A DNA stretch of 64,000 nucleotides from Deltaproteobacteria bacterium (lineage in GTDB: Bacteria > Bdellovibrionota > JACOXK01): contig JACPKQ010000007.1 of assembly GCA_016186995.1 (NCBI GenBank), positions 52,226 through 116,225 on the forward strand, written 5' to 3'. Below the pieces are notes generated by a model that saw nothing but the letters and a program-made list of their open reading frames with translations, searched no databases and had not been told where the DNA came from. The position numbers were made by a program, and so were the translations under genes. Positions 4,981 to 63,929 of the stretch are shown here, in pieces. Numbering within the stretch: the first letter of the stretch is position 1; every line of letters begins with the position of its first letter.

Positions 4981-5067
4981 AATTAAAGATATTCTTTTCT
5001 TACAAAATAGAGTGGTTAGACATTTCGATGCAAAAATTAGAATGTCAGTAAATTGTGGAGATAAATC

Positions 5068-8228: not shown

Positions 8229-8295
8229 ATAATGTATTAAAGATACTGGAAAATATTAAAAGTTTCAATATATTACGTCATGTCTTTACGAAAAC

Positions 8296-8385
8296 CTACA
8301 TAAAACTACATAAATATTTATTTAATATTTGAAAAATACATAAAAATATTATAAATATATAAAAATAACTAATATCTACATAAAA
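8296..8385. promoter_or_regulatory. Four direct copies of (C)TACATAAA in the divergent promoter region upstream of the response regulator gene
   Basis: ctacataaaa and ctacataaat are tandem at 8296-8314. tacataaaaa is at 8337-8346 and ctacataaaa at 8376-8385. Confidence 0.35.
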
Positions 8386-8423
8386 TAGAAAAAAATCTCA
8401 TTTGATTTTAAAAAAGGAGCACA

Positions 8424-8834
8424 ATGGAAGAGAAAATATCAGTTTTAGTTATTGATGATGACGACCTCTTTCGTCGAATGATGTTTAACTTTCTAAGTAA
8501 AAAGAAATTTGATGTTAATGAGTGTAAAAGCGGAAAAGAAGCAGTTAAGTGTGTGAAAGAAAGACATTTCGACATTATATTTTGTGATATGGCCATGCCT
8601 GAAATGAATGGAATCAAGACGGTAAAAGCACTTAAAAAAATTGATCCAGAAGCTAAAATAATCATAATGACAGGTTATGCAGATGAAGATGATTGGCGTG
8701 AAATCCAAAAATCAGGAGCCTGTGCGGGACTTCTTAAATCAGTTAAAATGGACAATATTTGTTTAATCATTGAAAAATCAATAGAATTGACCATTCCAGA
8801 ATTTGAAAAATGGATTCAAGAGACTCACAATTGA
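8424..8834 (+). CDS. Single-domain response regulator (CheY-like receiver)
   Basis: VLVIDDDDLFRRMMFNFL...DIIFCDMAMPEMNGI...KIIIMTGYAD carries the phospho-acceptor Asp, the T and K regions. RBS AAGGAG. No output domain. Confidence 0.85.
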   Translation: MEEKISVLVIDDDDLFRRMMFNFLSKKKFDVNECKSGKEAVKCVKERHFDIIFCDMAMPEMNGIKTVKALKKIDPEAKIIIMTGYADEDDWREIQKSGACAGLLKSVKMDNICLIIEKSIELTIPEFEKWIQETHN

Positions 8835-8935
8835 AGGAATAGAATATCTTTTCATTTGATCTCGGATTGATGATTGAGGGGTTTTCTATTGCACAATTCA
8901 AAAAATAAACTGTTTCTTCCGATAATGAAGAAGCG

Positions 8936-10429
8936 ATGAAGTATTTTAATAAATTAAGCCTTTTAACCAAAATCTCGCTGGTTGTGAGCTTTGCTATTAT
9001 TGTCATAGAAGTGATGATTGCCATTCCGTCCGTGATCAAGAGAAAAAAGGATGTATTTTTGCGTCATCATCATTTTAATTTTAGTCTTCTTCATACCATT
9101 CACAAACCCCTGATTCATTATCTAGATTCAAATCGAATAGTGGATAGTAAAATGCTCATGGATATGTTTCGTGTGCATGTCGAGGTTGGATTTAAAGAAT
9201 ATGCTATTACAGATCAATCGGGAAATCTTCTGGTCTCCTTATATAAAAAGACTTCATTTCATACCCAGAAAATTGATTATGATCTGACAGAGAACGAAAA
9301 TTTTTACTGGAAACACCTTAAGAAAAAAAATATGCTCATTTATAAATATAATATTACAAAAGAAAATAAACTCTTATATTCGATTTATCTTTCTTATTCA
9401 GATGCTTATTTTTGGAAACAGGTATGGGTTTATACTGGAAGCGTTTTGCTTTTGATCACTCTCATTATTATTTTTACATCTGCTGGAATAGTATTGCTTC
9501 TGAATCCGATTATTATTAGCCCTATTAAAAGAATAGTCCTTGCTAATAAGAAAAAGGAATTTATTGAGAGGCATTTTTTCCCTGGTGATGAATTGGGGAG
9601 TATTATGGAATCTCGCCATGAGATGTTGGAACAGTTAAGAGAATATCAATCAAATCTGGAAGACAAAATTCAGGAAAATACAGAAACGCTCAATCAAGCT
9701 TATAGAAAATTACAGGTTTTAGATAAAGCTAAAGATGATTTTTTAGATCTTATATCACATGAAATGAGAACCCCTCTAACGCTTATTGAAAATACGTTTA
9801 CGTTGTTTAAAGAGCAGATTGTGAAAGGAAAACAACAAAGTCTTCACCTTTTAGATGTCGGTATTAAAAACAGCAAACGCCTCGAAAAATTGGCAGATTT
9901 ATCGATAGATATTGCTGCTCTGAATGAAGAAAAGTTTATGCCAAAGCAGGAAAGTATGAATCTCAATGAAATTATTTTAAGTGCGATTCTATCAATGCGC
10001 CCGCACGCTCATCAAAAAGGAATTGTTATTAAAGCAGATTCTTTAGAAGACGGGGTTTTAATCATGAGTGACAAAGAGAGATTGGTTAAAGTTATTAAGA
10101 CTGTTTTAGAAAACGCTATCCAGTTCAGCCCCCAGAATAAAAAAGTAATAATTGAAGAAGAGTTCAGAGAAAATAATGTTATTATTAAAATTCAGGATTT
10201 TGGAGCAGGTATTAAGGAAGACCTCAAACATCTTGTTTTTGAGCCCTTTGCTTCAATAGAAGATATTTTATCTCATACGAAAGGTTTAGGTTTAAGTCTT
10301 TTTTGGTGCAAAAAAGTGATGGGAGTTCTGGGAGGATCGATCTCTTTTGAAAGCAAAGAAGGACAGGGTGCTACCTTTTTTATTCAACTTCCCCTTCTTC
10401 AAGAATTAAAGCGGAACAAGGCTGCTTAG
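8936..10429 (+). CDS. Membrane sensor histidine kinase (2 TM segments, HAMP-like region, HisKA, HATPase_c)
   Basis: The H box is LISHEMRTPLT. The N, G1 and G2 boxes are in NAIQFS...IQDFGAGI...GLGLSLF. The N-terminal TM is LVVSFAIIVIEVMIAIPSV and the second TM is VLLLITLIIIFTSAGIVLLL. Confidence 0.85.
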   Translation: MKYFNKLSLLTKISLVVSFAIIVIEVMIAIPSVIKRKKDVFLRHHHFNFSLLHTIHKPLIHYLDSNRIVDSKMLMDMFRVHVEVGFKEYAITDQSGNLLVSLYKKTSFHTQKIDYDLTENENFYWKHLKKKNMLIYKYNITKENKLLYSIYLSYSDAYFWKQVWVYTGSVLLLITLIIIFTSAGIVLLLNPIIISPIKRIVLANKKKEFIERHFFPGDELGSIMESRHEMLEQLREYQSNLEDKIQENTETLNQAYRKLQVLDKAKDDFLDLISHEMRTPLTLIENTFTLFKEQIVKGKQQSLHLLDVGIKNSKRLEKLADLSIDIAALNEEKFMPKQESMNLNEIILSAILSMRPHAHQKGIVIKADSLEDGVLIMSDKERLVKVIKTVLENAIQFSPQNKKVIIEEEFRENNVIIKIQDFGAGIKEDLKHLVFEPFASIEDILSHTKGLGLSLFWCKKVMGVLGGSISFESKEGQGATFFIQLPLLQELKRNKAA

Positions 10430-10447
10430 AGTTGCAGTTGGATAGTG

Positions 10448-12064
10448 TCAATGGATCAGCGCGCAGACTTTCCATGTAGAATCATAGCGCTTGAGATGAA
10501 TAAGAACTTTGTTTTTTGGAAATGACAGTATGGCTCTGTCGGGTGAAATAAGACGAAAGCGCCCGAATTGAAGTAGCGCATCAGCCGTCATATTCGAGGG
10601 GACAACTTTTCGAAAAAAATGAGAGAGTTCATTCGCAATAACATTTCTTCTGGAGAGGCTTTCTTGATGAACACTGTCCAGATAGCGCTGCCTTTTTTTT
10701 CTCTTAACTTCTTCTCGTGAAGTTTCACCCAGTCGATTTAACATCTGAAGCCTTTGTTTCCATTGAAGCAGATTTTGTGTGAGTGTCATGTGCTCTTGTT
10801 GTGTCAGGTTGTTTTTTAACAAATTTTCGATCTGAGAAATCTTGCTCTGACACAACCTTAAATCATTTTCCAACTGATCAAAGTGTTGGTCCACCTGCGC
10901 TTCCATCTCTTGAATTTTTTCTTGTACCGTTTTTGTTTCTGAAAATGCCAGTGGAAACCCATCCAGCTGAATAAAGAGTTCATCTATGGCAACAAATTGA
11001 TCTATAGTGTTAGCATGTAAATGTTCCTTTTGGAGAATGGATAAAAATTTTGTAGAATCGTTTTTTGCCTCTGCACGCAAAGCTTCTTTTTCTTCCAAAG
11101 AAAGTGTATCAAGCGCTTTTTTCCCCTCATCCACTCTCAGACGGCTTACTTCGGTAATTTTGCGAATTATTTTTTCATTTTCATCCCTGATTTGAACGAC
11201 CCCATTGCATTCTTGAACAACTGTGAGTGGGAATAATGAAGGCATCAATGAAAAAACAAAAGTCTTTTCGTTTGCCGCTGTCCCTTCAAATTCAAAGACT
11301 TCCACAGATAGTTTTTTCTTCTCCGCAAGATGATGAACGAAGATGGAATCTAATTTAATCGTTTTAATAGAGAGAAAACTTTTAATGTTTATTTTGGGAT
11401 AGATCTTCCAATCAATAGAAACTTTTTGGGGTTCCTTTTGCCCGGATTTTATCACTTCAAGATCAACAGAAGATTCATGGACTTTTGTCACCTTGATGAC
11501 TTCTCTATAGGGTCGATCTTCGGAGATCTCATATATTACATAATCTCCTTCTTGAACGCCCCCCCATAAATATTCTTTTGAATATTCGAAAGGATAAGAG
11601 ACAGAATCTTTCACATCTTCTTGATGTGTCACAACCTCAATATGTTCTATGGAGCGAAAAATTTCTGCCATGCGAAGATCCGCTTTTAAAAAGCTCTCTT
11701 CAGCCACAACATAGCCACTTAAAATGGCTCCACCGTCTGTAACCACCGCGGCTGCCAATAGGGGTTGGGTGACATCTTTTTCCACAATTTTAAGAGAAGA
11801 AAGATCTTGAAATTCAATTTGAATAAAATCAGCCTCTGATATTTTTTCAAAATCCACATCTCTTGAATAATAGAGACGAATGGGCGAAACAGATTTTTGT
11901 TCAACATCGAAACGAATTATTTTTTGTTCTTCTTGAGGATCTTTCGGTTTTTGAAAAGAGATCTCTACATCATACTGGCCTTCATTAAGAGTTGCTGAAT
12001 ATAAATTTACGGGGACCACAGATAGTGCGCACAATAGTGTCATGAAAAGGACATTCATCGCCAT
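10448..12064 (-). CDS. Secreted coiled-coil protein of unknown function
   Basis: Signal peptide MAMNVLFMTLLCALSVVPVNLYSA. A long Glu/Gln/Leu-rich heptad region lies in the C-terminal half. Confidence 0.4.
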   Translation of the reverse strand: MAMNVLFMTLLCALSVVPVNLYSATLNEGQYDVEISFQKPKDPQEEQKIIRFDVEQKSVSPIRLYYSRDVDFEKISEADFIQIEFQDLSSLKIVEKDVTQPLLAAAVVTDGGAILSGYVVAEESFLKADLRMAEIFRSIEHIEVVTHQEDVKDSVSYPFEYSKEYLWGGVQEGDYVIYEISEDRPYREVIKVTKVHESSVDLEVIKSGQKEPQKVSIDWKIYPKINIKSFLSIKTIKLDSIFVHHLAEKKKLSVEVFEFEGTAANEKTFVFSLMPSLFPLTVVQECNGVVQIRDENEKIIRKITEVSRLRVDEGKKALDTLSLEEKEALRAEAKNDSTKFLSILQKEHLHANTIDQFVAIDELFIQLDGFPLAFSETKTVQEKIQEMEAQVDQHFDQLENDLRLCQSKISQIENLLKNNLTQQEHMTLTQNLLQWKQRLQMLNRLGETSREEVKRKKRQRYLDSVHQESLSRRNVIANELSHFFRKVVPSNMTADALLQFGRFRLISPDRAILSFPKNKVLIHLKRYDSTWKVCALIH

Positions 12065-12204
12065 CTTTATAATCTGTCAAAAAAATTTAGCAATATGAAA
12101 AAATTTCATTGTTTTTTAATCCGTTAGTAAAACTTATTCATTTGAAAAAAACACTATATACTTGATGTCATTGAAAAATTATTTTTTTGACTGTTTTGCT
12201 TAAA

Positions 12205-12220
12205 TGGCACAATCATTGCT
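12205..12220 (+). promoter_or_regulatory. Sigma-54 (RpoN) -24/-12 promoter, TGGCAC-N5-TTGC
   Basis: tGGCACaatcaTTGCt matches the TGGCACG-N4-TTGCW consensus exactly. It lies 55 bp upstream of the GTG start at 12275. Confidence 0.6.
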
Positions 12221-12274
12221 AGTCTGCCTTCGTGGAAACGCCTATTGTAATTTCTGAAAAAATGAGGGGGTAAC

Positions 12275-24259: not shown

Positions 24260-27200
24260 TTAAGCTGCTTTTTTAAGCTGTTCTTCTTTAATGATACGTT
24301 TTCGGGGAATTCTAAAGGTGAATGTAGAACCTTTTCCATAAACACTTTTGACACAGATATTTCCTCCATGCAATGCAACAATCCTCTTGCAAAGAAAAAG
24401 TCCTAATCCAGACCCTTTTTCAGACTTTTCTACAGGCATTTCTGGAGTTTGGAACCTGTCAAAAATATGAGATATTTTTTCTTGCGAAATCCCTTGTCCT
24501 GTATCTGTAACAGAAACCTCAACAAACTCTTCTCCATTTTCTTTGATAGCTCTAGCTTTGAGAGTGATGGTACCACCCAATGAAGTAAATTTTAAAGCAT
24601 TGATTAAGAGATTTTCAATAACTTCTCGAATACGATCTGGATCACACGTCATGTTTTCAACAAGATCCTCTATTTTAAGATTTATGTGAATACCTCGACT
24701 CTGGGCAATTATTTTAGTATCTTCAAAAACATTCCTGATAAGCTCTTTCAGAAAAACATTTTTATATTGGAGAGAAAATTTTTCAGAATCCAGCTGAGAG
24801 ATGTTAAGAAATTGCTCTGTTAGTCTCGTCATTCTTTGTGTTTGTCGTGATATAATATCTAAAAACTTCCCATGATGTCTTGCCGGCATGGTGGAGAAAG
24901 ATTCAATACAATGTTGAATAATCATGAGTGGATTTTTAAGGTTATGGGAACAAAGTCCAAAGAATACATCTTTAAGGTTAGTAAGTGTTTTGAGTTTTTC
25001 GTAAGCCTGTTTAAGCTCTTCCATTTTCTCTTGAATAACTTCATGTGTCTTTGTAAGTTCTTGAGTTCTTAAATTTACCTTTTCTTCCAAAGATCGACGG
25101 AGTTGATCTAATTCATTGAAAGCCAGAGAGTTTTGAATAGCAATAGCTACTTGTGTCGCAAATACATTAAGTATTTCTAAATCATCTTTTGTAAAAAGGT
25201 TTGTAATAATTCTATTATCAATATAAATGATTCCCAATGTTTCTTTTTCAACTTTTAAAGGCACGCACAGAACAGATCTTAGCCCGTATTTGGTAACAGA
25301 TTTACTTGTCTTAAATTGAGGATCTGTTTGTGCATCGATGACAACAATGCCTTTGGCTTCCTTATAGACCTTTTGGAGTATTTTTTGACTTAAAGAGAAT
25401 TCATCCCCTGAGACTTGTGAAGTATCCACATGTCTTGAAATACGAATTTGAAGTTTTCCATCATTATCTTTTAACATGATAAAACCCCTCTCCCCTCCAA
25501 AGAGTTCAATAAGCGATTCCATCACGCTTGAAAGTAAAGTGGGCAGGTGACGAATGGAACTTAAATAATTACTGACTTTGATAATGGTTTCTAATCGACG
25601 ATTCCGCTTAACTTTTTCCAGCTGCATATCTTTTCTCTGAATGAGTTGTTGATACTTTGAGCAGAGAAGATTGAGATGATACTGATCATCACACTCCTCA
25701 AAAATATCTTTGGCAAGGTAAAGATAATGTATGGCGTTAGATTCAGCTTGTGCAAGAAGAAGTTCAGCATAGGAAAAATAGGTTTGTCCTAATAGATTCT
25801 TTGCCCCCAGCTTGTGTAGTGATTCAATGCTTTTTTTATAAACTCGCTTTGCTTGTGCATGTTTTCCAAAGGCTGTACAGATATCCCCATAAACGCGTAA
25901 AGCCCAACCACCATGGTTTGGATACCGCTGAACTTTTAAAATCTGTTTTCCCATTTTCCAGACTTTCTTTTTAAGTTCTTTATCTTTTTTTTCTTTCCAT
26001 TTTTCAAGATAGGCTTCCGCTAAAGTAAGTGGGGCACCTTGAACATAGCCGATGCGTATTTTGAATTTTTTGATCAGTCCTGTTGCCTTTTCTCCATATT
26101 CAATAGCCTTCTCAAAATTATGAAACAGCAAATACACCGCTGCCGCTGTGTCATAAAGTATTATTTGCCCAATGACATCCTTAATCTCATCAATCATTTT
26201 CAGAGTTTGATGGATACACTTAAATGCCTTTTCTTTATTTCCTCTTAAAGCTTCAAGAAGACCTATCCATGGTAAGATTTTTGTCCTAAAGGAAATATCC
26301 TGGACTTCGGTAGCTATATTGAACGCTATTTTGAAATTTTCTAAAGCTTTTCGTAAATCTCCTTTGATCCACCAACACAACGCTTTAAAACCGATTGCAT
26401 TAGAAAGCTCCCACGCATCACCAATTTTCTCACACCCCTCAATGGCTTTCTCTGTACACTCAATGGCTTTATCCGGATATCCATTATGATAATAGAAAAT
26501 ACCCATACAAGAATGAGTTTGGGCAACACCAAAGACATCGGCATTTTTTATATGAATAGCCAGGGCTTTTCTAGCATAATGAAGAGCTCTTTTCTTAAAA
26601 GGGGTTACTGCCAAATACACACTGTAAATTGATGAAGCTTGAGCTACTTCTTTTTCTTGTCCAACATCATCGGCAACATTTAAATAGCGCTGACAAGAAA
26701 GAAAGCCCTTTATGGGAGTGACAAACCAGTAAGTTAAACTAAGGGCCCGATGGATCCTATTTTGTTCTTGAAAGATTTTTGCCTGTTTTGAATGCTTTTT
26801 TCTTCCAAAGAAATAACGAGGGAATCGTCTATGAAAAAAGCGCATCATGAAAGTTTTTAAAAATGCCAAGACAAGCCCCGGGGTAGAAGAAGGCATTCTT
26901 GCGCCAAGAAATTGCAGGGCTTTTTCAGCATTTTCTATAGATTTTTCATAAGCCCCTTTTCGGAAAAAAAGATCTCCGCGTTTTCGATACAATCGGCACT
27001 TATCTAAAACTGACACTTTTTTTAGAAGAAGATCAGAGTAAATCTTTTCTGCGTCGCTATAATTTCCAATAAGAAGATTGATATCTGCTTTTTCTTCTAA
27101 AACTTCATCTTTAAGAACAAACTCATCTGACCGCATGAATGTTAATGCTCGATTGAAAAAAACAAGGGCTTCTTGTGTTGCATAAGAATGCGTAGCAACT

Positions 27201-29407
27201 TTGCCAGCACGGACCGAGTAATGAACAATTTTTTCAGGAATTTTAGCATGAAAAAAATGGTGAGCTAGTTTGTAAATGGCAAGGGGTCGATCTTTGTCTG
27301 CACTTTTTTCGATGGCAGTGCCCACAAGCTTGTGAATATGTTTCTTTTGTTCGTCTGGAACTTCTTGATAAATAGCTTCCTGAATACGGTCGTGAAGAAA
27401 ATTATAAGTTCCCATATGAAATAGCGATTCTTCTATGAGTTGTGCTTTTTTGGCTTCTTCTAAAGAGTGGTGCACCTCCAGCGGATTGGGATAAACATGC
27501 ATGAGGAGGTCTTGTGTCCACTCCTCTCCGATTGCAGAAGCAATTCTGAGAATTTTCTTAGTGACAGGAGTCACTCGTTTTAATCGTTCGATAAAGAAAC
27601 TAAGAATCTCTTCCGGAAACGGAGTCTTAAGAAGTTGTATCTTATTGAGCTGCCATTTATTTTCCTTGAGATAGAGAATTTCTTTCTCAAATAGCGTCCT
27701 GAATATCTGGGTAATATACAAAGGATTTCCTTCACTTCGAGAGTAGATATGTTTTCCAAGCTCCTCTACCCAAGAGGTTTGGGTCATTAAAATCTCATGA
27801 CAAAGCTCAACAATATCATTTTCTTTCAAAGGAGAGAGCTTTATTTCCATTGTTTTTTCAAACTTTTTAAACTCTTGTGAAAATGATTCTAACCATTCTG
27901 GCGCTTCTGAGGGACGGTAAGTGATCATAAGTTGAATCGGGGTGTGATCAACAGAAGATACTGTTTTCCGAAGCATCTGAAGTGTTTCATGGTCTACGCC
28001 GTGAAGATCATCGAGAAACAGAATGAGAGGATGGACAGAAGCTATAGCTTTCCACAAGGAATTAACACAGTTAAAAAGACGTTCTCTCGCTCTTTCTGGA
28101 GAAAGAGGGGAAATGGGAACAGTTGTTTCATTACATATCAGTTTGAGTTCAGGAACAAATTCCAAAACAACTTCCAACAAATCTTCGAGCTCATCTTCTA
28201 TTGCTTTTTTAATCTGATCTCGGGTTTTTTTAGAAAAGTTTGCATAAAGTTGAACATACTCTCGTATTGCTTGCTGTATCGGTGCATAAGGAAAACGTGT
28301 TAATAAAACATGTCCTTTCCCAGAAATAATAATACATTGGGAAAGCGTAGCATAAGAACGAAGTTCATTTAAAATTCGTGTTTTACCAATGCCAGCCTCT
28401 CCAAGGAGAAACGTGACACTTCCTTTGTTTTGCTTGAGTTGATTCACTTGTGAACGTAGCGTATTTATAACATTCTTCCTACCCATAAGGGGTAGCTCAT
28501 GCATTAATTTTCCTGTTCGATCCACTTTTCCAAGAGGAAAGTTTTCCATACTTCTTCCTTCCTTCAACTTCTGAAAAACAATCTTTAAATCATGAATGAG
28601 ACCTTCTCCAGTTTGATAGCGTTCTGAAGGGTCTTTAGAAAGGAGTTTAAAAACTATTTTTTCGAGTATTTCAGGAACTTGCTTATTTTTTTGTTGAGTC
28701 AGTGAGGGTGGTTGTTTGGTTAAATGATCATGGATAAGCACACCTGCATCTTGAGACTGAAAAGGAGGGGCACCGCTGAGAAATTCATACAAAATAACTC
28801 CAAGCGAATAAAGATCTGAACGAACATCACTGATGTGCCGGAAAAGTCCTGTCTGCTCTGGAGGGATATAGGCAAGAGAACCAACGAGTGCCTCTTTTTC
28901 AAAATAATCATCAATGGTGAGAAGTCTGGCCAAGCCAAAGTCTAAAATTTTTATATTTCCCTTTGAATCAAAAATAATGTTTTCAGGTTTAAGATCGCGA
29001 TGAATAATAAGATTCTGATGGAGATAATTAATAATTTCTATGAGATCAATGGTCCATTTGATGGATTCTTCTATACTTATCTTATGTCTACTTAAGATTT
29101 CCCGGAGTGTGAGCCCCTCAATATATTCTGTAACAAAATAAAGGCAATCTTGAACCTCTCCAAGATCTAATATTTTGACGACACCGGGATGAGAGAGTTT
29201 AAGAAGAATGTGCATTTCTTCTTTCAACCGAAAGACATTTTTCTCCCCCTGATGCTTAAGATCAAGATATTTTAAAATGACCTTGTTTTCAGTTTTAAGA
29301 TCTGTGGCCAAGTATACAAAACTCCCCCCCGACTCTTGAAGAAGCTTTTCTAAAGAATATCGATTATCAATAATATGATTTTTCTTTAAAGCCTGCACCT
29401 TCGCCAT
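24260..29407 (-). CDS. Giant multidomain signalling protein (1715 aa): Ser/Thr protein kinase, AAA+/NACHT-like ATPase, TPR repeats, GAF, HisKA and HATPase_c (HstK-like dual kinase)
   Basis: The Ser/Thr kinase subdomains are VILKYL, HRDLKPENIIF, DFGLAR and PPE. The P-loop is FLLGEAGIGKTR and Walker B is LILFLDDLH. A TPR-like helical array occupies roughly residues 700-1150. GAF is FGGERGFIMLKD. The H box is CSHNLKNPL. The ATP lid is TDTGQGIS...GSGLGLFLC. Confidence 0.85.
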   Translation of the reverse strand: MAKVQALKKNHIIDNRYSLEKLLQESGGSFVYLATDLKTENKVILKYLDLKHQGEKNVFRLKEEMHILLKLSHPGVVKILDLGEVQDCLYFVTEYIEGLTLREILSRHKISIEESIKWTIDLIEIINYLHQNLIIHRDLKPENIIFDSKGNIKILDFGLARLLTIDDYFEKEALVGSLAYIPPEQTGLFRHISDVRSDLYSLGVILYEFLSGAPPFQSQDAGVLIHDHLTKQPPSLTQQKNKQVPEILEKIVFKLLSKDPSERYQTGEGLIHDLKIVFQKLKEGRSMENFPLGKVDRTGKLMHELPLMGRKNVINTLRSQVNQLKQNKGSVTFLLGEAGIGKTRILNELRSYATLSQCIIISGKGHVLLTRFPYAPIQQAIREYVQLYANFSKKTRDQIKKAIEDELEDLLEVVLEFVPELKLICNETTVPISPLSPERARERLFNCVNSLWKAIASVHPLILFLDDLHGVDHETLQMLRKTVSSVDHTPIQLMITYRPSEAPEWLESFSQEFKKFEKTMEIKLSPLKENDIVELCHEILMTQTSWVEELGKHIYSRSEGNPLYITQIFRTLFEKEILYLKENKWQLNKIQLLKTPFPEEILSFFIERLKRVTPVTKKILRIASAIGEEWTQDLLMHVYPNPLEVHHSLEEAKKAQLIEESLFHMGTYNFLHDRIQEAIYQEVPDEQKKHIHKLVGTAIEKSADKDRPLAIYKLAHHFFHAKIPEKIVHYSVRAGKVATHSYATQEALVFFNRALTFMRSDEFVLKDEVLEEKADINLLIGNYSDAEKIYSDLLLKKVSVLDKCRLYRKRGDLFFRKGAYEKSIENAEKALQFLGARMPSSTPGLVLAFLKTFMMRFFHRRFPRYFFGRKKHSKQAKIFQEQNRIHRALSLTYWFVTPIKGFLSCQRYLNVADDVGQEKEVAQASSIYSVYLAVTPFKKRALHYARKALAIHIKNADVFGVAQTHSCMGIFYYHNGYPDKAIECTEKAIEGCEKIGDAWELSNAIGFKALCWWIKGDLRKALENFKIAFNIATEVQDISFRTKILPWIGLLEALRGNKEKAFKCIHQTLKMIDEIKDVIGQIILYDTAAAVYLLFHNFEKAIEYGEKATGLIKKFKIRIGYVQGAPLTLAEAYLEKWKEKKDKELKKKVWKMGKQILKVQRYPNHGGWALRVYGDICTAFGKHAQAKRVYKKSIESLHKLGAKNLLGQTYFSYAELLLAQAESNAIHYLYLAKDIFEECDDQYHLNLLCSKYQQLIQRKDMQLEKVKRNRRLETIIKVSNYLSSIRHLPTLLSSVMESLIELFGGERGFIMLKDNDGKLQIRISRHVDTSQVSGDEFSLSQKILQKVYKEAKGIVVIDAQTDPQFKTSKSVTKYGLRSVLCVPLKVEKETLGIIYIDNRIITNLFTKDDLEILNVFATQVAIAIQNSLAFNELDQLRRSLEEKVNLRTQELTKTHEVIQEKMEELKQAYEKLKTLTNLKDVFFGLCSHNLKNPLMIIQHCIESFSTMPARHHGKFLDIISRQTQRMTRLTEQFLNISQLDSEKFSLQYKNVFLKELIRNVFEDTKIIAQSRGIHINLKIEDLVENMTCDPDRIREVIENLLINALKFTSLGGTITLKARAIKENGEEFVEVSVTDTGQGISQEKISHIFDRFQTPEMPVEKSEKGSGLGLFLCKRIVALHGGNICVKSVYGKGSTFTFRIPRKRIIKEEQLKKAA

Positions 29408-35544: not shown

Positions 35545-35559
35545 TGGCATCTGATTTGC
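35545..35559 (+). promoter_or_regulatory. Sigma-54 -24/-12 promoter candidate, TGGCAT-N5-TTGC
   Basis: tTGGCATctgatTTGCa. It lies 68-86 bp upstream of the lipoprotein gene start at 35627/35645. Confidence 0.5.
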
Positions 35560-35626
35560 AGTTTTAATGAACTAAGACTGGATCCTTCGACGAGCTCAGG
35601 ATGACAGAGAGGGTCGCGGGAATGAC

Positions 35627-36558: not shown

Positions 36559-38172
36559 ATGGGAAAATGCTCTCAGTACGATGCCATTATTATTGGTGCG
36601 GGCCACAACGGGCTTATCACAGCCGCTTATTTAGGAAAAGCAGGGAAGAAAGTTCTGCTTTTGGAAAAGCGCCCTGTGATAGGGGGATCTTGTGTTACTG
36701 AAGAAGTTATTCCAGGCTTTAAAATTTCAACCACTTCTTATGTATGTTCACTTTTAAGACCTGAGGTTATTCATGATTTAGAGCTTAAAAAATTTGGATT
36801 TAAACTTTTGCTTCGTGATCCTTCATCTCTTTCTCTTTTCCCAGATGGAAAGTATTTTTATTTTTGGCGAGATCCCAAAAAAACTCATCAAGAGATTGCA
36901 AAACTTTCAGAAAAAGATGCCCGAAACTGGGCTCATTATCATGAAGATTTAGAACAAATCGCAAGTATTGTAGAACCCATGATGATAAAACCAGCGCTTG
37001 ATCCTCAAACAAAAAAAATCAAAGAACTTTTTGAAATGGCAAAACTAGGTTTGCGTGTAAGAAAAGAAGATAAAGCCCTTTCGAATCTGTTGCGCATGTT
37101 TTCTATGAGTGTGGCTGATTTTTTGGATTCTTACTTTGAAAGTACAGAGCTTAAAGCAACCCTTGCCACAGATGGGGTGATTGGGGCTTTTGCAGGGCCT
37201 TATATGCCGGGTACAGCTTATGTTCTTTTTCATCATGTGATGGGTGAAGCCGAAGGTGTAAAGGGTGCGTGGGGTTATGTTGAAGGGGGCATGGGCGGTA
37301 TTACCCAAGCTCTTTATAAATCAGCCACACGTTTTAAAGTAGAGGCTTTAACGAATGCATCTGTTCACAAGATATTAGTTAAAAATGGAGAGGCTTATGG
37401 TGTTGCACTCCAAGATGGACGTGAATTTTACGCCAAAGCTATTATTTCAAATGCAGATCCTAAAAAAACATTTTTAGATTTTGTTTCTTCTCATGATTTA
37501 CCTAGTGATTTTATTCGCGGTGTAAAAAATATTAAATTTCGAAGTGCTTCTTTTAAAATTAATTTAGCTTTGGATTCACTTCCTTCGTGGAAGGCTATCC
37601 CAGGAAGTGAATTAGGCCCGCAACACAGGGGAACCATTCATCTTTCTCCAAGCATGGAATACATTGAAAGAGCTTTCGATGATGCAAAATATGGAAGGCC
37701 TTCAAGACAACCTGTTTTAGAGTGTACGATTCCAACAAGTGTGGATCCTACGATTGCTCCATTAGGAAAACATATTATGGGAATGTTTGTGCAGTATTTC
37801 CCCTATGATTTAAAAGAAGGAAATGTGGTTCAAGAAAAAGAAAAGTTTGTAAAAACGTGTCTTAATCTTTTAGAAGAATATGCACCAGGAATTCAAAATA
37901 AAATAAGTGGGGTGCATGCCTTAAGCCCACAAGATTTAGAAAAAGAATACGGCCTTACAGGAGGAAATCTTTTTCATGGAGAGATGACTTTAGACCAACT
38001 TCTTTTTATGAGACCACAACCTGGGTGGTCAAGGTATCGAACTCCTTTACCGCATCTTTATTTATGTGGATCAGGGGCTCATCCTGGTGGCGGTGTTTTA
38101 GGGGCACCAGGGTATTTGGCTGCCAAAACCATTCTTTCGCTCGAGTCATCACGAACCCAAAGGACGTGGTGA
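36559..38172 (+). CDS. FAD/NAD(P)-binding oxidoreductase of the phytoene-desaturase (CrtI/COG1233) family
   Basis: The N-terminal dinucleotide-binding motif is YDAIIIGAGHNGLITAAYLGKAGKKVLLLEKR-x-IGG. It is followed by a C-terminal amine-oxidase-like fold. Confidence 0.7.
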   Translation: MGKCSQYDAIIIGAGHNGLITAAYLGKAGKKVLLLEKRPVIGGSCVTEEVIPGFKISTTSYVCSLLRPEVIHDLELKKFGFKLLLRDPSSLSLFPDGKYFYFWRDPKKTHQEIAKLSEKDARNWAHYHEDLEQIASIVEPMMIKPALDPQTKKIKELFEMAKLGLRVRKEDKALSNLLRMFSMSVADFLDSYFESTELKATLATDGVIGAFAGPYMPGTAYVLFHHVMGEAEGVKGAWGYVEGGMGGITQALYKSATRFKVEALTNASVHKILVKNGEAYGVALQDGREFYAKAIISNADPKKTFLDFVSSHDLPSDFIRGVKNIKFRSASFKINLALDSLPSWKAIPGSELGPQHRGTIHLSPSMEYIERAFDDAKYGRPSRQPVLECTIPTSVDPTIAPLGKHIMGMFVQYFPYDLKEGNVVQEKEKFVKTCLNLLEEYAPGIQNKISGVHALSPQDLEKEYGLTGGNLFHGEMTLDQLLFMRPQPGWSRYRTPLPHLYLCGSGAHPGGGVLGAPGYLAAKTILSLESSRTQRTW

Positions 38173-39102: not shown

Positions 39103-39903
39103 ATGTCACTCAGAAAGTCGATATTTGTTTTAGTGACTGTATGTGCTGGATTGTTTTATCAGCCTGTGAATGCAGCGGAAAGTGTGGGCCTGTTAGGTAG
39201 CACTCTTCGTGAGCATGCACGAGAAATCCACAGAGCTTCAGAAAGAATGGTAGCTCAAGCCGAAGCCTACAAAGGCTATTACGATTCTGATAACTTTCAT
39301 GTAGTTTATCAGTTAAGAGACTTAGAAAGCTCAGCCAGACGCTTCCGTAGCCGGGTAGATTCGTGGTTGCAAGATCCTTCTCTTGCCTACAACGAATTTT
39401 ATGATGTTGCAGGCGATCTTGAAGATGTAAAAATGGTAGCTTCACGAGCTACTTTTTTTCGTTTCATTATGGATGATTTGAATCGAGCAAGTGAAAGCGT
39501 AAGAGAGCTTCGTTTGTATTATTATGGTTATGGTTACCGTCATTGGGATGATCATTATAGAGATGATCGTGAAAGACGTCGCCATGAAGAACGTGAACGT
39601 CGTGAGCGTGAAAGAAGAGACCATTGGGATCGAGATGGACATCGCTACGATCGAGATCGTCATGAACGTGAAAGAAGAGATCGCGAACGTTGGGACAGAG
39701 ACCGTCGTGATCGTGAAGAGCGCGACAGAAATGAACGTGAACGTCGTGAAAGAGAAAGACGTGAACGTGAAGATCGTGAAAGGCGCGATCGTGATAACCG
39801 AGATCGAGACCGTTGGGATAGAGACAGAGATCGTGATCGCGGAGATCGAGACCGTCGCGATCGTGAAGACCGTGAAAGACGCGATAGAAATCGCCATAGA
39901 TAA
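39103..39903 (+). CDS. Secreted protein with an N-terminal domain paralogous to 38315-39076 and a roughly 120-aa C-terminal Arg-Asp/Arg-Glu dipeptide-repeat tail
   Basis: Signal peptide MSLRKSIFVLVTVCAGLFYQPVNA. The tail reads RDDRERRRHEERERRERERRDHWDRDGHRYDRDRHERERRDRERWDRDRRDRE...RDRNRHR. The underlying DNA at 39538-39900 is an imperfect cgtga(a/t)cg(t/a)-type tandem repeat. Confidence 0.6.
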   Translation: MSLRKSIFVLVTVCAGLFYQPVNAAESVGLLGSTLREHAREIHRASERMVAQAEAYKGYYDSDNFHVVYQLRDLESSARRFRSRVDSWLQDPSLAYNEFYDVAGDLEDVKMVASRATFFRFIMDDLNRASESVRELRLYYYGYGYRHWDDHYRDDRERRRHEERERRERERRDHWDRDGHRYDRDRHERERRDRERWDRDRRDREERDRNERERRERERREREDRERRDRDNRDRDRWDRDRDRDRGDRDRRDREDRERRDRNRHR

Positions 39904-39926: not shown

Positions 39927-40015
39927 CTGTCATCGCGAGGGAATGAAATGACCGTGGCGATCTCATCGCAGTAGCGATGGGCATGGCGCAGCACCCTTAC
40001 CTCGCAATGACGAGG
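39927..40015. repeat. Copy of a dispersed palindromic repeat family with imperfect inverted termini CTGTCATCGCGAGG ... CCTCGCAATGACGAGG
   Basis: The termini are at 39927-39940 and 40000-40015. Internal small palindromes include gcgatctcatcgc. Confidence 0.55.
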
Positions 40016-42760: not shown

Positions 42761-42870
42761 TGTCATTGCGAGGCGAGGCCGAAGCAATCTCCTAGAATTG
42801 CTTTAGCAATTCTAGGACAACACTTGCGTGTTGGGATCGCCACGTCGCTTATAGCTCCTCGCGATGACAG
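42761..42870. repeat. Copy of the palindromic repeat family (termini TGTCATTGCGAGG ... CCTCGCGATGACA) with a nested perfect palindrome TCCTAGAATTGC-ttta-GCAATTCTAGGA
   Basis: The arms are at 42761-42773 and 42858-42870 with 1 mismatch. The nested palindrome is at 42790-42817. It lies between the convergent pdhB and bcp genes. Confidence 0.55.
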
Positions 42871-48834: not shown

Positions 48835-48981
48835 TGATAAACAATGAAAAACAACACCTTAATTCAAGAAATTTTTATATTAATCTAATAGTAATGGCAA
48901 GAGGTTTCGAAAGCAGACTTTAACACAAACATAATAAATATAACTGGGCTCAGTGCCATCCTGATGTTCGCAAGAATGCTG

Positions 48982-48996
48982 TGGCACATGAATTGC
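48982..48996 (+). promoter_or_regulatory. Sigma-54 -24/-12 promoter, TGGCAC-N5-TTGC
   Basis: gTGGCACatgaaTTGCt. It lies 100 bp upstream of ATG 49096. Confidence 0.55.
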
Positions 48997-49095
48997 TATA
49001 TTAGCGAGATGTGATACAAGTCGTGCTTGTGTCACTATAAAATAGTGCCGTTTTAGGGCATTTTGTAAACAAAATGTTAATTTTCAGAATATATT

Positions 49096-58706: not shown

Positions 58707-60692
58707 TTGGGCATTTTTTTGACTTTTAGGGTTTTCTCCGAGATACTTCAGAAAGAAATGAGAGATCTCTCTCGAAAAGACGACGTTCTTGTCATATCTG
58801 ATGATTCTCAATTTTTGAAATCATTTCTTGAAAAGTTTCAAGATCCTTTATTTTCTTTTTCCTATTTTTCAAGTAAAGAAGAGGCTCAAGATTTTTTGAA
58901 GGTCCGAAAACCGCTTATTATTTTAGGTGGAGAAAACTTTGTTTCCTTTCTTGAAGAAGCAAAAAAAGTTTCGCCTTATTCTGTAAGAGTTTTTTTGTCT
59001 GAAGAAAATAATTTAGAAACAATTCAAGAGGCCATTAATCAAGCTGATGTTTATCGTGTCATTTCTTCTGATTCTGATCTGATTCATTTAAGAAAAACAC
59101 TTCGAGAGGTAAGAGAATACGGCATGATTTATAGTGAAAACCAAAAACTTCTTCAAAAAGCAGAAGAGCAATCTTTAGAATTAGATCAGATGATTCTTTC
59201 TTTAGAAAAAAATATTGAAGAAAGAACAAAAATACTAGCAGAATCTCGTCTTGAAATTTCTCAAACTGAAGCTGAGTTAGAGCATCTTAATAAATTTCTT
59301 AAGAACATTAGTATGGCTATGACTATAGAGGATATTAAAGTATGGCTTGAAAAAGAGCTTAAAAACATTCTTCCTATTGATGAACTTTCTTTAGTGGTGA
59401 ACGAGCCGCAACCACGGGGTTTTAAGAATGCCGATAAATTTACGGTGGCTTTTCCTCTTATTTACGGAACAAAACTTTTAGGACATTTTTATTTACGTGG
59501 AAAAGATGAAGAACTTTTAAAACAAGCAGAACTTCTTCTAGGGTTTTTACAACAAGTAACTCATACTATTGCTATTACGGTTGATCGTATTCAATCTTTT
59601 GAAGCGATTGCTCAAGATAAAAAGGCATGGGAGGCTTCTTTTGATGCGATTGTCGATCCGGTTGCTATTTTAAATCATCATTATGAAGTGATTCGTGCGA
59701 ATTCAGCTTATGCTCGTGCAAGTGGAACCTCTCTTCAAAAACTTTTTGGAAGAAAATGTTATGAAGTTTTTGAAAATAGAAAAACATTTTGTGAGGGGTG
59801 TTATGTAAAAGAAGCATTTTCAGCTAACCAAGGTGTCATGTCTGATATTTCAAGTTTAAAACAAAATAAAAAGTATAAGGCAACAAGTTACCCAGTTTTG
59901 GACAAAAACGGAAAAGTAAAATTTATTGTTCAGTATTATAAGGATGTGACTCGAGAACACAGTTATAGGGATCAGCTTGTAAGAGCTGAAAAAACAGCAG
60001 AATTGGGCATTTTAGCAGGAAGTATTGCCCATGAAATTAATAATCCGTTAGGGGGTATTTTGGCTTTTGTGCAAATTCTTAAGTCTGAACTACAAGAAAA
60101 AGAACCACTTTTTGAAGATATTCTTGATATTGAAGAAGCGGCACTTCGTTGTAAACGTATTATTGAAAATCTGCTTAAATTTGCAAGACAGTCTAGAGAT
60201 GAGAAAAGAAAAAAATATTACCTTCAAAATATTTTAAAACTTTCTATTGCGTTGATTGAGTTTCAAGCCAAACATTTTAATATTTCAATCACAAAAAAAA
60301 TATCTTCAAAACCTATTTATATTTTAGGGCACTTCAATCAACTCTGGCAGGCAATTGTAAATATATTAGAAAATGCCATTGAAGCTGTAGTTGAAAAAAA
60401 AGAGGGGGCAAAAAAAATAAAAATTACTGTGCAAACCTTTTCGAAGAAAACGGAGAAAGGTATAGAAAAATGTGTACGTATTGCTCTTATCAATAATGGT
60501 AAACCCATTTCAAAGTCTGAGTTATCAAAAATTTTTGATCCTCTTTACACCACAAAAGACCCACAAAAAAATCCAGGGCTTGGGCTTTCCATGAGTCAGA
60601 GTATTGTACAAGATCATGGTGGGCAATTAAGAGTGTATCAAACCCCCAAAAAAGAGACAGTATTTGCCATAACGCTGCCTGTTTTTGAGTAA
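58707..60692 (+). CDS. Sensor histidine kinase (NtrB/AtoS-like) with an N-terminal pseudo-receiver, coiled coil, PAS/GAF-like region, HisKA and HATPase_c
   Basis: The H box is AGSIAHEINNPLGGI. The N/G boxes are in NAIEAV...NNGKPI...GLGLSMS. A probable ATG start lies at 58762. Confidence 0.8.
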   Translation: MGIFLTFRVFSEILQKEMRDLSRKDDVLVISDDSQFLKSFLEKFQDPLFSFSYFSSKEEAQDFLKVRKPLIILGGENFVSFLEEAKKVSPYSVRVFLSEENNLETIQEAINQADVYRVISSDSDLIHLRKTLREVREYGMIYSENQKLLQKAEEQSLELDQMILSLEKNIEERTKILAESRLEISQTEAELEHLNKFLKNISMAMTIEDIKVWLEKELKNILPIDELSLVVNEPQPRGFKNADKFTVAFPLIYGTKLLGHFYLRGKDEELLKQAELLLGFLQQVTHTIAITVDRIQSFEAIAQDKKAWEASFDAIVDPVAILNHHYEVIRANSAYARASGTSLQKLFGRKCYEVFENRKTFCEGCYVKEAFSANQGVMSDISSLKQNKKYKATSYPVLDKNGKVKFIVQYYKDVTREHSYRDQLVRAEKTAELGILAGSIAHEINNPLGGILAFVQILKSELQEKEPLFEDILDIEEAALRCKRIIENLLKFARQSRDEKRKKYYLQNILKLSIALIEFQAKHFNISITKKISSKPIYILGHFNQLWQAIVNILENAIEAVVEKKEGAKKIKITVQTFSKKTEKGIEKCVRIALINNGKPISKSELSKIFDPLYTTKDPQKNPGLGLSMSQSIVQDHGGQLRVYQTPKKETVFAITLPVFE

Positions 60693-60839: not shown

Positions 60840-62222
60840 ATGTCTTTAAAAAAAATTCTCATTATCGATGACGAATCTTCCTGCCGAATAGCTCTTGGAA
60901 AATTTCTCACAAAAGAAAATTACGATGTTAAATCTGTTCGAAAAGGTGAAGAAGCTTTAGAACTTTTTAAAAACCAACATTTTGATCTTGTCATTACTGA
61001 TTTAAAAATGCCAGATGTAGATGGCATGGAAATTGTTTCTTTCATTTCAAAAAATTTTCCAGAAACACATTCTATTGTGATGACGGGTTTTGGAAGTATT
61101 GAATCTTCTATTGAAGCTTTAAAAAGAGGAGCCTTTCACTACATTACAAAACCGTTTCGTCTTGAAGAAATAAAAAATCTTGTTCAAAAAGCAATAGGTG
61201 AAAAAGAACTTCAAAAAGCAAATCAACTTTACAGAAAAGAGCTTCAAGCAACTTATCAGTTTGAAAACATTATAGGCGAAAGTCGTAAAATGAAAGACGT
61301 TTTTGAACTTATTGAAAAGGTGGCGGTTACTGATTGTACGGTGCTTATAACGGGCGAAAGTGGTACTGGGAAAGAACTTGTGGTACGGGCTATCCATTAT
61401 AATAGTTTAAGGTCTAAAAAACCCTTGGTTACAGTTAATTGTGGAGCTATTCCTGAAAGCCTTCTTGAATCAGAGCTTTTTGGGCATATGAAAGGTTCGT
61501 TCACAGGGGCCATTTCTAATAGAGAGGGGCGTTTTGAAACGGCAGACAAGGGGACCCTTTTTTTAGATGAAATTGGAAGCATGCCTTTCGCTTTACAAGT
61601 AAAACTTCTTCGTGTTCTTCAAACAAAGTCTTTTGATCCTGTCGGAGGAAAAACAAGACAAGTTGATGTTCGAATTATAGCTGCTACGAATCGTGATTTA
61701 GAGCAAGCAGTGAACAAAAATGAGTTTCGTGAAGATCTTTTCTATCGCTTGAATGTTATTCCTATTCACATTGCTCCTTTAAGAGAGCGAAAAGAAGATA
61801 TACCCCTGTTGATTGACCACTTTGTTAAAAACTTTAATAAAAGAAATCCTAACAAGAAGGTATCAGGTATTTCAGGAGAAGCCCTTCGTATTATGCTCGA
61901 TTATGATTGGCCGGGTAATGTAAGACAGCTTGAAAATATTATTGAAAGAATTTTAATACTCAAGGAAAAAGGGGGTATTCTTCCAAAAGACTTGCCACTT
62001 AAAATGTATCAAGATCAAAATGGTAAAAAACACTTTGATGTTTCTATTCCAGAAGATGGTCTTGATTTTAATAATATGATTGATGAATTTGAAGAGAATA
62101 TTTTAAGACAGGCGCTTCATCAAACAAAGTGGAATCAAAACAAAGCTGCAAAACTTTTAAAATTAAAACGCACCACTCTTATCGAAAAACTCAAAAGAAA
62201 AAAAATCTCAAAACCTCTTTAA
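60840..62222 (+). CDS. Sigma-54-dependent response regulator (NtrC/AtoC family enhancer-binding protein): receiver, AAA+ sigma-54 activator domain and Fis-type HTH
   Basis: The receiver is ILIIDDE...LVITDLKMPDVDG. Walker A is GESGTGKE. The GAFTGA-like loop is GSFTGA. ESELFGH is present. The C-terminal HTH is NQNKAAKLLKLKRTTLIEKLKR. Confidence 0.9.
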   Translation: MSLKKILIIDDESSCRIALGKFLTKENYDVKSVRKGEEALELFKNQHFDLVITDLKMPDVDGMEIVSFISKNFPETHSIVMTGFGSIESSIEALKRGAFHYITKPFRLEEIKNLVQKAIGEKELQKANQLYRKELQATYQFENIIGESRKMKDVFELIEKVAVTDCTVLITGESGTGKELVVRAIHYNSLRSKKPLVTVNCGAIPESLLESELFGHMKGSFTGAISNREGRFETADKGTLFLDEIGSMPFALQVKLLRVLQTKSFDPVGGKTRQVDVRIIAATNRDLEQAVNKNEFREDLFYRLNVIPIHIAPLRERKEDIPLLIDHFVKNFNKRNPNKKVSGISGEALRIMLDYDWPGNVRQLENIIERILILKEKGGILPKDLPLKMYQDQNGKKHFDVSIPEDGLDFNNMIDEFEENILRQALHQTKWNQNKAAKLLKLKRTTLIEKLKRKKISKPL

Positions 62223-62806
62223 AAAATACAAAAGTCAGTAAATTATTTTATGCTGTTTGTTGTTTTAGAAATATCAAACTTCCAAGCCATGAGGAGGCAT
62301 AACCATATCTCCTAATGAGCCCGCTGTAAGATTGAGAATGTTGAAGTCCACCCTCTCCCTAGCCCTCTCCCATCAAGGGAGAGGGAATAGCTGATAACTA
62401 CCAGGAAGTGACATCGGAATTCACTGCTATAAACCAGGGGACCTCCTCGGCCACTTCTGTGGCCTCGAGGTGAAATGCACGCAGTGCATTTCATCCTGGT
62501 GTTCGCGAGATGGTGATTCATCTGCTTGAGAAATGTTTGACAGTCTTGTAACGTGGGCCGGATGAAAAAAGCCAAAATTCGAGATTTCTCATTCAAAGAT
62601 TTTATCTTGGATCAACTTTCTGACTTGCCCGAGACGATTGCTTCTCCAATGTTTAGCAGCTACGGTCTTTACTCCAACGATATATTCTTCGGGATCATAA
62701 ACGATGGCATCCTTAAGATTAAAGCAACCTGTTAGATTTGTGACGCTGTCTAATATTTGAATACTTTTGAGTATGGAAAAGGGGTACGTTTAAGCTTGAA
62801 AAGGGG

Positions 62807-62821
62807 TGGCACGTGAGTTGC
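62807..62821 (+). promoter_or_regulatory. Sigma-54 -24/-12 promoter, TGGCAC-N5-TTGC
   Basis: gTGGCACgtgagTTGCa. It lies 35 bp upstream of ATG 62856 and immediately downstream of the sigma-54 activator gene. Confidence 0.6.
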
Positions 62822-62855
62822 AAAGAAAACCCCTATCTTGAAAAAAGGGGGGACC

Positions 62856-63929
62856 ATGACATACCGAAAGCGTTTGTTAGCGATTCTTTTAGGAATTTTT
62901 TCCTTAGCGATTTTAGGCTGTGGGGCCAGAACCTCAGAAGCTCCTAAGCCTTTTTACTCTGAATTTCTCTGGACGGCGCAAAACATAGACTCGAAAGAGC
63001 CCATGCAATTTGCCAGCATGAGTGAGAATCAAATAGTAGAAACTTTAAGAACAAAATATGGAATAAAAGTGATTATTTTAAGTAGTGCTGAAACCCCCAA
63101 CCCTCACTTAACGATTGGAAATTTAAGAGAAGACAGAGATCTGGTCTCCTATTTTGAACAGGACGCAGAAGATCAAATTTGTGTAAAAACAGGAACTTGT
63201 AAAGAAGAAAGTGAAGTTGCAGCAGGACAGTTCTTATATCCTTATGAACATAGGCATTCCTCTGTAGACAATTTAGAAGCAGGCACTCATCGTCCAGGCT
63301 TAAATAAACCTATTATTGTTTTAACAAAAAGTTCGACTCGCCGGCATATGATTCATGAGTTTATGCATTATTATTTAGGGACTTTAACCAACGATGATGT
63401 TCCTCAAACAATAGATGGAGTGCTTCATTGTAATCGCTGCTCTCGAATTGTAGAAACATTGCAACTCAATCGCCTTCTTTCTGAGAAACAAAAATTTCAT
63501 GATGAGAATATCAACACATTTTCTTCTCAGGCCCATTATAATTTAGATATGGAGTTAGAAAAAATAAGAACACAAATAATCATCAATAATTTCACAACTC
63601 TTTTGAAAAAAGGAGAAGAGATTGATATTCATCGTTTTTGCTTTGATCATAGAAAAAAGTTGGGTTTTAACACAGAAGAAGCCGCGCAAGATTTGGGAGC
63701 CATTGTTGGATATGTAAAGGAAATTTCTAAGAAAATGAAAGATATGAATATGGAAACCGTAGCCAAAAATATCCAAAAAAATATTAATTTATATTCTCCA
63801 GATGTCCAATCCACACTTTCTAAATTAGAAGATCTTTTTGAAAAGATTAACTCTAAAATAACGGAGTCCAAAGGATGGATCAGCTCTATTGGGATACCCG
63901 GTTCAATATGGGAGGAAGATCTTAACTAA
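62856..63929 (+). CDS. Lipoprotein with an HExxH metallopeptidase-like motif
   Basis: Lipobox LAILGCGA. The HExxH motif is MIHEFMHYY. The TTG at 62838 is an alternative upstream start. Confidence 0.5.
   Translation: MTYRKRLLAILLGIFSLAILGCGARTSEAPKPFYSEFLWTAQNIDSKEPMQFASMSENQIVETLRTKYGIKVIILSSAETPNPHLTIGNLREDRDLVSYFEQDAEDQICVKTGTCKEESEVAAGQFLYPYEHRHSSVDNLEAGTHRPGLNKPIIVLTKSSTRRHMIHEFMHYYLGTLTNDDVPQTIDGVLHCNRCSRIVETLQLNRLLSEKQKFHDENINTFSSQAHYNLDMELEKIRTQIIINNFTTLLKKGEEIDIHRFCFDHRKKLGFNTEEAAQDLGAIVGYVKEISKKMKDMNMETVAKNIQKNINLYSPDVQSTLSKLEDLFEKINSKITESKGWISSIGIPGSIWEEDLN

Follow-up and report, generated by a model that had tools for sequence, protein, structure and literature searches.

Four lipoprotein genes in a 64,000-nucleotide (nt) stretch of DNA from an uncultured Bdellovibrio-like bacterium are each preceded by a predicted −24/−12 promoter of sigma-54, an alternative sigma factor. 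The stretch, here called the window and numbered from its first letter, comprises positions 52,226 to 116,225 of the forward strand of contig JACPKQ010000007.1 (GenBank assembly GCA_016186995.1, Deltaproteobacteria bacterium). We consider it likely that the four predicted promoters, denoted A to D, are genuine promoters of lipoprotein genes and that the family to which proteins C and D belong inherits sigma-54 control, a reading that does not assign the promoters to a particular activator. Upstream of promoter D, the window also encodes a sensor histidine kinase and an NtrC-family enhancer-binding response regulator, which an initial annotation of the sequence had proposed to govern all four genes (Table 1).

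In the window, which has a G+C content of ~36%, the exact motif TGGCAC-N5-TTGC occurs three times (promoters A, C and D) against 0.07 expected occurrences, and 0 of 100 shuffled sequences reached three. Site B reads TGGCAT and has one mismatch, so the initial annotation of four perfect promoters stands for A, C and D and has to be softened to near-perfect for B. With the relaxed motif TGGCAYN5TTGCW, four matches compare with 0.17 expected. When every GG-N10-GC site on both strands was scored against TGGCACGNNNNTTGCW (maximum 12), the four sites reached 12, 11, 11 and 10, each with a spacing of exactly 10 nt from the GG to the GC doublet, and no other site in the window scored 10 or more. All four are intergenic, in a window of which only 8.8% is intergenic, and each is co-oriented with a plus-strand gene 16–99 nt downstream, whereas all 13 sites with a score of 9 fall inside coding sequence. 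This split in score and position fits real promoters and is unlike chance. By statistics, position and orientation, and for D also by the conservation described below, the near-consensus sites of the initial annotation are therefore very probably sigma-54 promoters. Transcription from promoter D would start near position 62832.

As had been noted before, the genes behind these promoters encode predicted lipoproteins, all four having a signal peptide and a lipobox-like cysteine. A PROSITE-like lipobox pattern covers TFVGC of protein A, FLVSC of protein C and AILGC of protein D, all within approximately the first 35 residues; LLWGC of protein B has an atypical tryptophan at position −2 and is covered by a relaxed pattern only. 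Among the other 47 open reading frames (ORFs) of at least 100 amino acids (aa), the relaxed lipobox was found once, in a transmembrane helix of a Na+/H+ antiporter, leaving A to D as the sole credible lipoproteins among the 51 ORFs of the window (a lipobox in 4/4 genes with a sigma-54 site vs 1/47 others). Several window proteins have an ordinary signal peptide; none of their genes is preceded by a sigma-54 site. The earlier description of the four products as envelope proteins of unknown function is only partly adequate: protein A is a predicted Kelch-repeat beta-propeller, and B, C and D each carry an HExxH motif (HEADH, HEWFH and HEFMH), which is present in one further ORF of the 51. For B, C and D, no family match above cutoff was obtained in Pfam or NCBIfam; C contains a weak dockerin-like segment (Dockerin_1, under the cutoff). 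Gene D likely starts at the ATG at 62856, which is preceded by AAGGGGGG and gives a product matching the 357-aa NCBI protein HYW47_01995, and not at the alternative TTG at 62838, only 16 nt from the promoter.

The strongest evidence for the reality of promoter D, again from sequence comparison, comes from its homologues. When 1.84 billion representatives were searched exhaustively with HMMER, ~30 relatives of D with 22–38% identity emerged; word-index searches with D, C and the family profile matched essentially only the queries themselves. A metagenome scan with a 7-sequence family alignment led to two loci. The canonical element was present at seven of nine homologue loci, directly upstream of the family gene in five of them and at the head of an operon in two. 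In the first group, TGGCATCTAAATTGCA lies 44 nt before the ATG of P0003 (L083, GCA_040960175.1) and TGGCATACTTTTTGCT 30 nt upstream of P0005 (L088), and TGGCACAACGATTGCA, TGGCACTGTATTTGCC and TGGCATGAGGTTTGCA are found directly upstream of P0009-like (L092), P0013-like (L093) and P0010 (L094), respectively. In the second group, TGGCATGTGATTTGCA precedes a 124-aa lipoprotein gene abutting the gene for P0007 (L089, 3538–5038), and TGGCACTGTATTTGCA precedes a 153-aa lipoprotein gene followed by that for P0004 (L087, 216–2069). Such a small lipoprotein gene heading a two-gene operon with a family gene suggests a partner or inhibitor. Of the other called genes in the same loci, 3/28 had a site, namely the two operon-head lipoprotein genes and one unrelated gene (1/26 among unrelated genes); the background amounted to 49 sites scoring at least 10 in 1.09 Mb of unrelated loci. 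The homologue loci belong to other uncultured bacteria with 35–41% G+C, and the genomic contexts of the family loci all differ, which indicates that the promoter travels with the family gene. The retention of the element across homologues points to sigma-54 dependence as a conserved, inherited trait of the family and not an accident of this locus.

The family itself consists of previously undescribed exported HExxH proteins, C and D among them. In an alignment of 25 sequences (A1), eight positions were conserved in at least 90% (R65, R146, P147, H167, E168, H171, G188 and E255 of D). E255 lies in a GEExD motif and may serve as the third zinc ligand. Most relatives of D have ordinary signal peptides, D itself a lipobox. 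Comparison of A1 with C by hhalign (probability 82%, E 1.1e-5, 148 columns) aligned both HEWFH and SEIED of C, identifying C and D as distant paralogues. No similarity among B, C and D was detected by pairwise BLASTP, and profile comparison of B with the D family revealed no detectable relationship. An AlphaFold model of D computed on the family alignment reached a predicted local distance difference test score (pLDDT) of 89 and a predicted template modeling score (pTM) of 0.85, compared with a pLDDT of 40 from the single sequence; in the model, HExxH sits on a predicted helix and E255 on a later one. Searches of the family against Pfam, PDB sequences and PDB folds found no relative. Because of the conserved HExxH and the downstream glutamate, C and D are probably zinc-dependent hydrolases.

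Several observations weigh against this picture. The hydrolase assignment is by motifs only, and the confident model of D had no protease-like match in the PDB. At P0004, the spacer of the site directly 5′ of the family gene is short by 2 nt, P0006 (L091) is preceded by only a degenerate TGGCAT-N5-TTCT and no canonical site, and no site was found upstream of P0028 (L086; 21% identity to D). Moreover, the related loci were found via the family itself, so the counts do not come from an unbiased sample. Finally, rpoN, the gene for sigma-54, is not among the genes of the 64-kb window. Its presence elsewhere in the host genome would be expected from the intact activator, and the RpoN-like factor bd0843 encoded by Bdellovibrio bacteriovorus (PMC3464611) makes rpoN plausible, if not proven, in this organism. 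A literature search joining sigma-54, Bdellovibrio and lipoprotein returned nothing relevant.

RNA polymerase containing sigma-54 forms a closed complex at the GG (−24) and GC (−12) doublets that is silent until an AAA+ enhancer-binding protein acts on it. At each of the four promoters, the polymerase would bind these doublets in this way, and an enhancer-binding protein bound further upstream would hydrolyse ATP and remodel the complex. As the closed complex is silent without its activator, the default state of the exported proteins would be off, and a signal would turn them on.

Table 1 Predicted features of the window (A to D label each promoter together with the lipoprotein gene downstream of it)
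Feature	Coordinates	Strand	Details
Sigma-54 promoter A (predicted)	12205..12220	+	TGGCACAATCATTGCT, 11/12
Lipoprotein A, 435 aa	12275..13582	+	lipobox SLTFVGC; Pfam Kelch_1, Kelch_4, Kelch_6
Sigma-54 promoter B (predicted)	35545..35560	+	TGGCATCTGATTTGCA, 10/12
Lipoprotein B, 293 aa	35627..36508	+	lipobox FLLLWGC; motif HEADHSTYGPH
Sigma-54 promoter C (predicted)	48982..48997	+	TGGCACATGAATTGCT, 11/12
Lipoprotein C, 504 aa	49096..50610	+	lipobox GLFLVSC; HEWFH, SEIED
Sensor histidine kinase, soluble, 661 aa	58707..60692	+	Pfam PAS_4, HisKA, HATPase_c
Enhancer-binding response regulator, NtrC-family (group I), 460 aa	60840..62222	+	Pfam Response_reg, Sigma54_activat (E 2.6e-73), AAA_lid_14, HTH_8
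GC-rich, hairpin-rich repeat-like insert, ~260 nt	62300..62560		fold z-score −3.4
tfoX remnant, 60 codons	62553..62735	+	TfoX_N positions 1–39 of 91; E 9.9e-6, under gathering score
Sigma-54 promoter D (predicted)	62807..62822	+	TGGCACGTGAGTTGCA, 12/12 consensus positions
Lipoprotein D, 357 aa	62856..63929	+	lipobox SLAILGC; HEFMH (HExxH)

Both the kinase and the sigma-54 activator were found where they had been placed in the initial annotation, with Pfam domains in agreement. The kinase has no transmembrane segment (the maximum Kyte-Doolittle average over 19 residues is 1.2) and carries H442 in its HisKA domain. Its top NCBIfam match was AtoS with 176.9 bits (cutoff 646), and NtrB scored 79.6 (cutoff 240); the alignments with these equivalog models were limited to the PAS-HisKA-HATPase part and did not reach the cutoffs, for which reason the kinase is only generically AtoS/NtrB-like. 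Its N-terminal region (58707–59500) contains ~130 receiver-like residues without a Pfam match. The PAS domain has a cluster of three cysteines (C351, C362 and C365), a hint that it may sense redox state or metals, and the kinase of L003, the closest related locus, shares this Cys-rich PAS.

The activator combines a receiver domain with an acidic pocket and the phospho-acceptor D54, an AAA+ domain with Walker A (residues 172–179), the loop GSFTGA (219–224, a variant of GAFTGA) and Walker B (~240–246), and a C-terminal Fis-type helix-turn-helix (HTH), with HTH_8 at residues 415–453. The receiver aspartate, GAFTGA-type loop and Fis-type HTH that mark the NtrC family (group I) are thus all present and, judged by these motifs, the protein is a complete and competent enhancer-binding protein of the NtrC group. 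It scored under the NCBIfam equivalog cutoffs of AtoC (490 vs 714), NtrC (453 vs 559) and ZraR (385 vs 760), and no second enhancer-binding protein was found among the window ORFs. A sigma-70-like match (TTGACA-16-GATACT, 10/12) lies between the kinase and activator genes. A scan of genome contigs with the activator placed its closest relatives, at no more than 55% identity, in metagenome-assembled genomes (MAGs) of ‘Deltaproteobacteria’, Bdellovibrio and Pseudobdellovibrionaceae, and then in Nitrospira; relatives were found mostly in Nitrospira, with differing gene contexts. At L003, which holds the best relatives of the pair, kinase and activator genes are followed by two more activator genes, so that three sigma-54 activator genes stand in tandem behind the kinase (8001–12222).

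Proximity makes the pair the obvious candidate for the control of promoter D, and activators are often encoded beside their targets. A first alternative to leaving the activator unassigned is that the pair controls promoter D alone, as its neighbor in cis, and that A, B and C are under activators encoded elsewhere. Activator gene and gene D are on the same strand with no complete gene between them, and a perfect 10+10 palindrome, TGAAATGCAC-GCA-GTGCATTTCA, occupies 62471–62493 in the spacer. The pair is, however, not immediately upstream of the promoter, as had been assumed: 585 nt separate the activator stop codon from promoter D, and they contain a GC-rich insert and a tfoX fragment. The palindrome lies inside this repeat-like insert, 314–336 nt from the promoter, together with a second palindrome (CCCTCTCCCT/AGGGAGAGGG); the insert looks like an element of the repetitive extragenic palindrome (REP) or miniature inverted-repeat transposable element (MITE) type, and a search of the intergenic region against Rfam gave no match. 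No continuation of the tfoX remnant was found in other frames. With a gene remnant and a repeat element inside it, the spacer looks like a rearranged junction, which suggests that gene D and its promoter arrived by rearrangement.

Nor is the adjacency conserved. The contexts of D homologues are unrelated and contain no competent activator close by: at eight other family loci there is none within 3–4 kb, and L087/L097 is the only locus where a kinase gene and a gene for an activator-like protein occur within 4 kb. The product of the latter gene (3980–5284, minus strand) is an NtrC-like protein with 33% identity to the window activator; it has lost the GAFTGA loop through a deletion of 12 residues and is thus probably no sigma-54 activator. 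From the other side, at L003 neither a lipoprotein gene nor a sigma-54 site follows the kinase-activator pair. Taken together, control of promoter D by its neighbors is possible but doubtful. The operon at L097 comprises genes for a hybrid kinase, a PAS kinase, the NtrC-like protein and a 297-aa exported protein and is preceded by TGGCATATAGATTGCA at 7456. Within the window, a stretch of ~32 nt (CAGTGC..CATCCTGRTGTTCGCRAGA) occurs exactly twice, at 48951–48975 and 62485–62510, upstream of promoters C and D, and was not found in the related loci first fetched. We ruled it out as an activator site, as its distance to the −24 box is 7 nt at C but ~300 nt at D, and as it is part of the repeat-like insert.

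The wider proposal of the initial annotation, a single surface-remodelling regulon in which the kinase phosphorylates the activator and the activator turns on all four lipoprotein promoters, fares worse. In its favor are an intact activator, with no second enhancer-binding protein in the 64 kb, and four targets that are all lipoproteins, three of them with HExxH. A shared activating sequence upstream of the four promoters, which had been suggested as a check, was not found: comparison of the four upstream regions for identical k-mers gave only marginal, AT-rich or low-significance words, no short inverted repeat was common to the four, and when words were enumerated across 11 promoters with one mismatch allowed, the top-ranking one, AAAAGGGC, was hardly better than shuffled controls. 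Inspection by eye for NifA-type TGT-N10-ACA and NtrC-type sites upstream was likewise negative. The promoters lie 14–50 kb away from the activator gene, the pair is not kept next to lipoprotein genes, and Deltaproteobacteria encode on average ~33 enhancer-binding activators per genome (PMC3162934), so that numerous further candidates should be encoded outside the window. Nothing indicates control of all four genes by the pair, and we regard the single regulon as quite unlikely. That the motifs match by chance or form part of sigma-70 promoters, with the housekeeping sigma factor transcribing the genes, is hardly credible, for in spite of TTGACT hexamers close upstream of A and B and a weak sigma-70-like match (9/12) overlapping promoter A, sigma-70-like matches, this one included, occur in the window at chance frequency, none was found between promoter D and gene D, and neither the excess of intergenic, co-oriented sites nor their retention before distant homologues in differing contexts would be expected.

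The reading of four sigma-54 promoters on lipoprotein genes, two of them on members of a family with inherited sigma-54 control, also fits a wider pattern. Extension of two related loci to 21 and 12 kb revealed more intergenic sigma-54 sites, one at position 17777 of L096 before an operon whose exported products have no known function and another at 7456 of L097 before the kinase/activator-like operon mentioned above. A further site lies in L092 before a coiled-coil protein gene. In the lineage we count about one site per 6–16 kb of sequence examined, with a bias to exported proteins that extends beyond lipoproteins. A site precedes each of the six credible lipobox genes (four in the window and two in the related loci), the latter two not being independent since they were reached via the family. 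In L094 (3928–4125), a strong site, TGGCACAGTAATTGCT, has no ORF downstream; ~190 nt past it, we recognized by eye a hairpin with a T-run beside a tRNA-like sequence on the other strand. This site could drive a sigma-54-dependent small RNA.

It is tempting, though rather improbable in our judgment, to see in sigma-54 a factor dedicated to the majority of lipoprotein genes and to an arsenal of exported HExxH hydrolases peculiar to this lineage. The cell surface and the secreted toolkit, possibly a programme for predation or attachment, would then stay silent until fired by AAA+ activators. If the pattern held genome-wide, it would indicate that the surface proteome is globally controlled on demand. 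New are the statistically strong finding that every lipoprotein gene of a region has a sigma-54 promoter directly before it, the exported HExxH family whose conserved promoter gives access to its regulation and characterizes it as induced by signals, and the unusual density of sigma-54 sites in an uncultured Bdellovibrio-like lineage.

Some further features of the window deserve mention. For gene B, a start codon at 35642 or 35648 is likelier than the one listed in Table 1. Its 5′ leader contains a GC-rich, repeat-like piece (35575–35625), and a flavin amine-oxidase-like gene (36559–38172) follows after a gap of 50 nt, short enough that the two genes may be co-transcribed. Two more short GC-rich, repeat-like pieces (39927–39965 and 42832–42870) form a 39-nt inverted pair that flanks the E1 dehydrogenase genes. 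Two adjacent ORFs at 3447–4980 have NUMOD1/I-TevI-type DNA-binding motifs, an ORF of 1715 aa lies on the minus strand (24260–29407), and an exported protein encoded at 39103–39903 has a long region of Arg/Asp/Glu-rich repeats (39550–39890).

Among characterized two-component systems, NtrB/NtrC, AtoS/AtoC and ZraS/ZraR share with the window pair the domain architecture of both proteins, the phospho-acceptor corresponding to D54, an AAA+ domain for interaction with sigma-54 and an HTH of the Fis type. The window pair differs in scoring under every equivalog cutoff, in a soluble kinase with an extra receiver-like N-terminus and a Cys-rich PAS domain, and in having no nitrogen, acetoacetate or zinc genes nearby. 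Gluzincin-type zincins resemble the D family in being exported and in having HExxH on a helix (predicted for D) with a conserved glutamate (E255) on a later one. In contrast to these, the family shows no similarity in Pfam, PDB sequence or PDB fold to any peptidase, a test for a zincin peptidase found neither fold nor profile similarity to a known peptidase family, and catalysis remains putative.

The initial annotation had likened the system to CtcC-type regulons of Chlamydia. CtcB/CtcC of Chlamydia trachomatis is indeed similar in pairing a two-component kinase with an AtoC-like activator and in a sigma-54 regulon with many membrane proteins and hypothetical exported proteins among its members. 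But CtcC has no DNA-binding domain (Soules et al. 2020, PMC7482065), whereas the window activator has HTH_8 and is for that reason not of the CtcC type. Chlamydia furthermore has a single activator, its target genes are not homologous to those described here, and the host in our case is a Bdellovibrio-like MAG, which reduces the likeness to a thematic one.

In Borrelia burgdorferi, it is rpoS that has the sigma-54 promoter, and transcription of the lipoprotein genes depends in turn on RpoS. Here, the −24/−12 element lies directly upstream of each lipoprotein gene. What the Rrp2-RpoN-RpoS cascade has in common with the present case is the government of surface lipoproteins by an AtoC/NtrC-group activator and sigma-54 (PMC3162934).

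Finally, sigma-54 promoters and their activators work by a textbook mechanism, and the bias of sigma-54 regulons to the envelope and the cell exterior has been published (Francke et al. 2011, PMC3162934). That survey likewise reports −24/−12 promoters before envelope-related genes, including those for lipoproteins, and many activators in organisms akin to the Deltaproteobacteria. There, the genes concerned act mostly in the biosynthesis and transport of envelope precursors; here, the predicted promoters sit directly on genes for structural lipoproteins and exported putative hydrolases, and they do so at every lipoprotein gene in the sequence examined.

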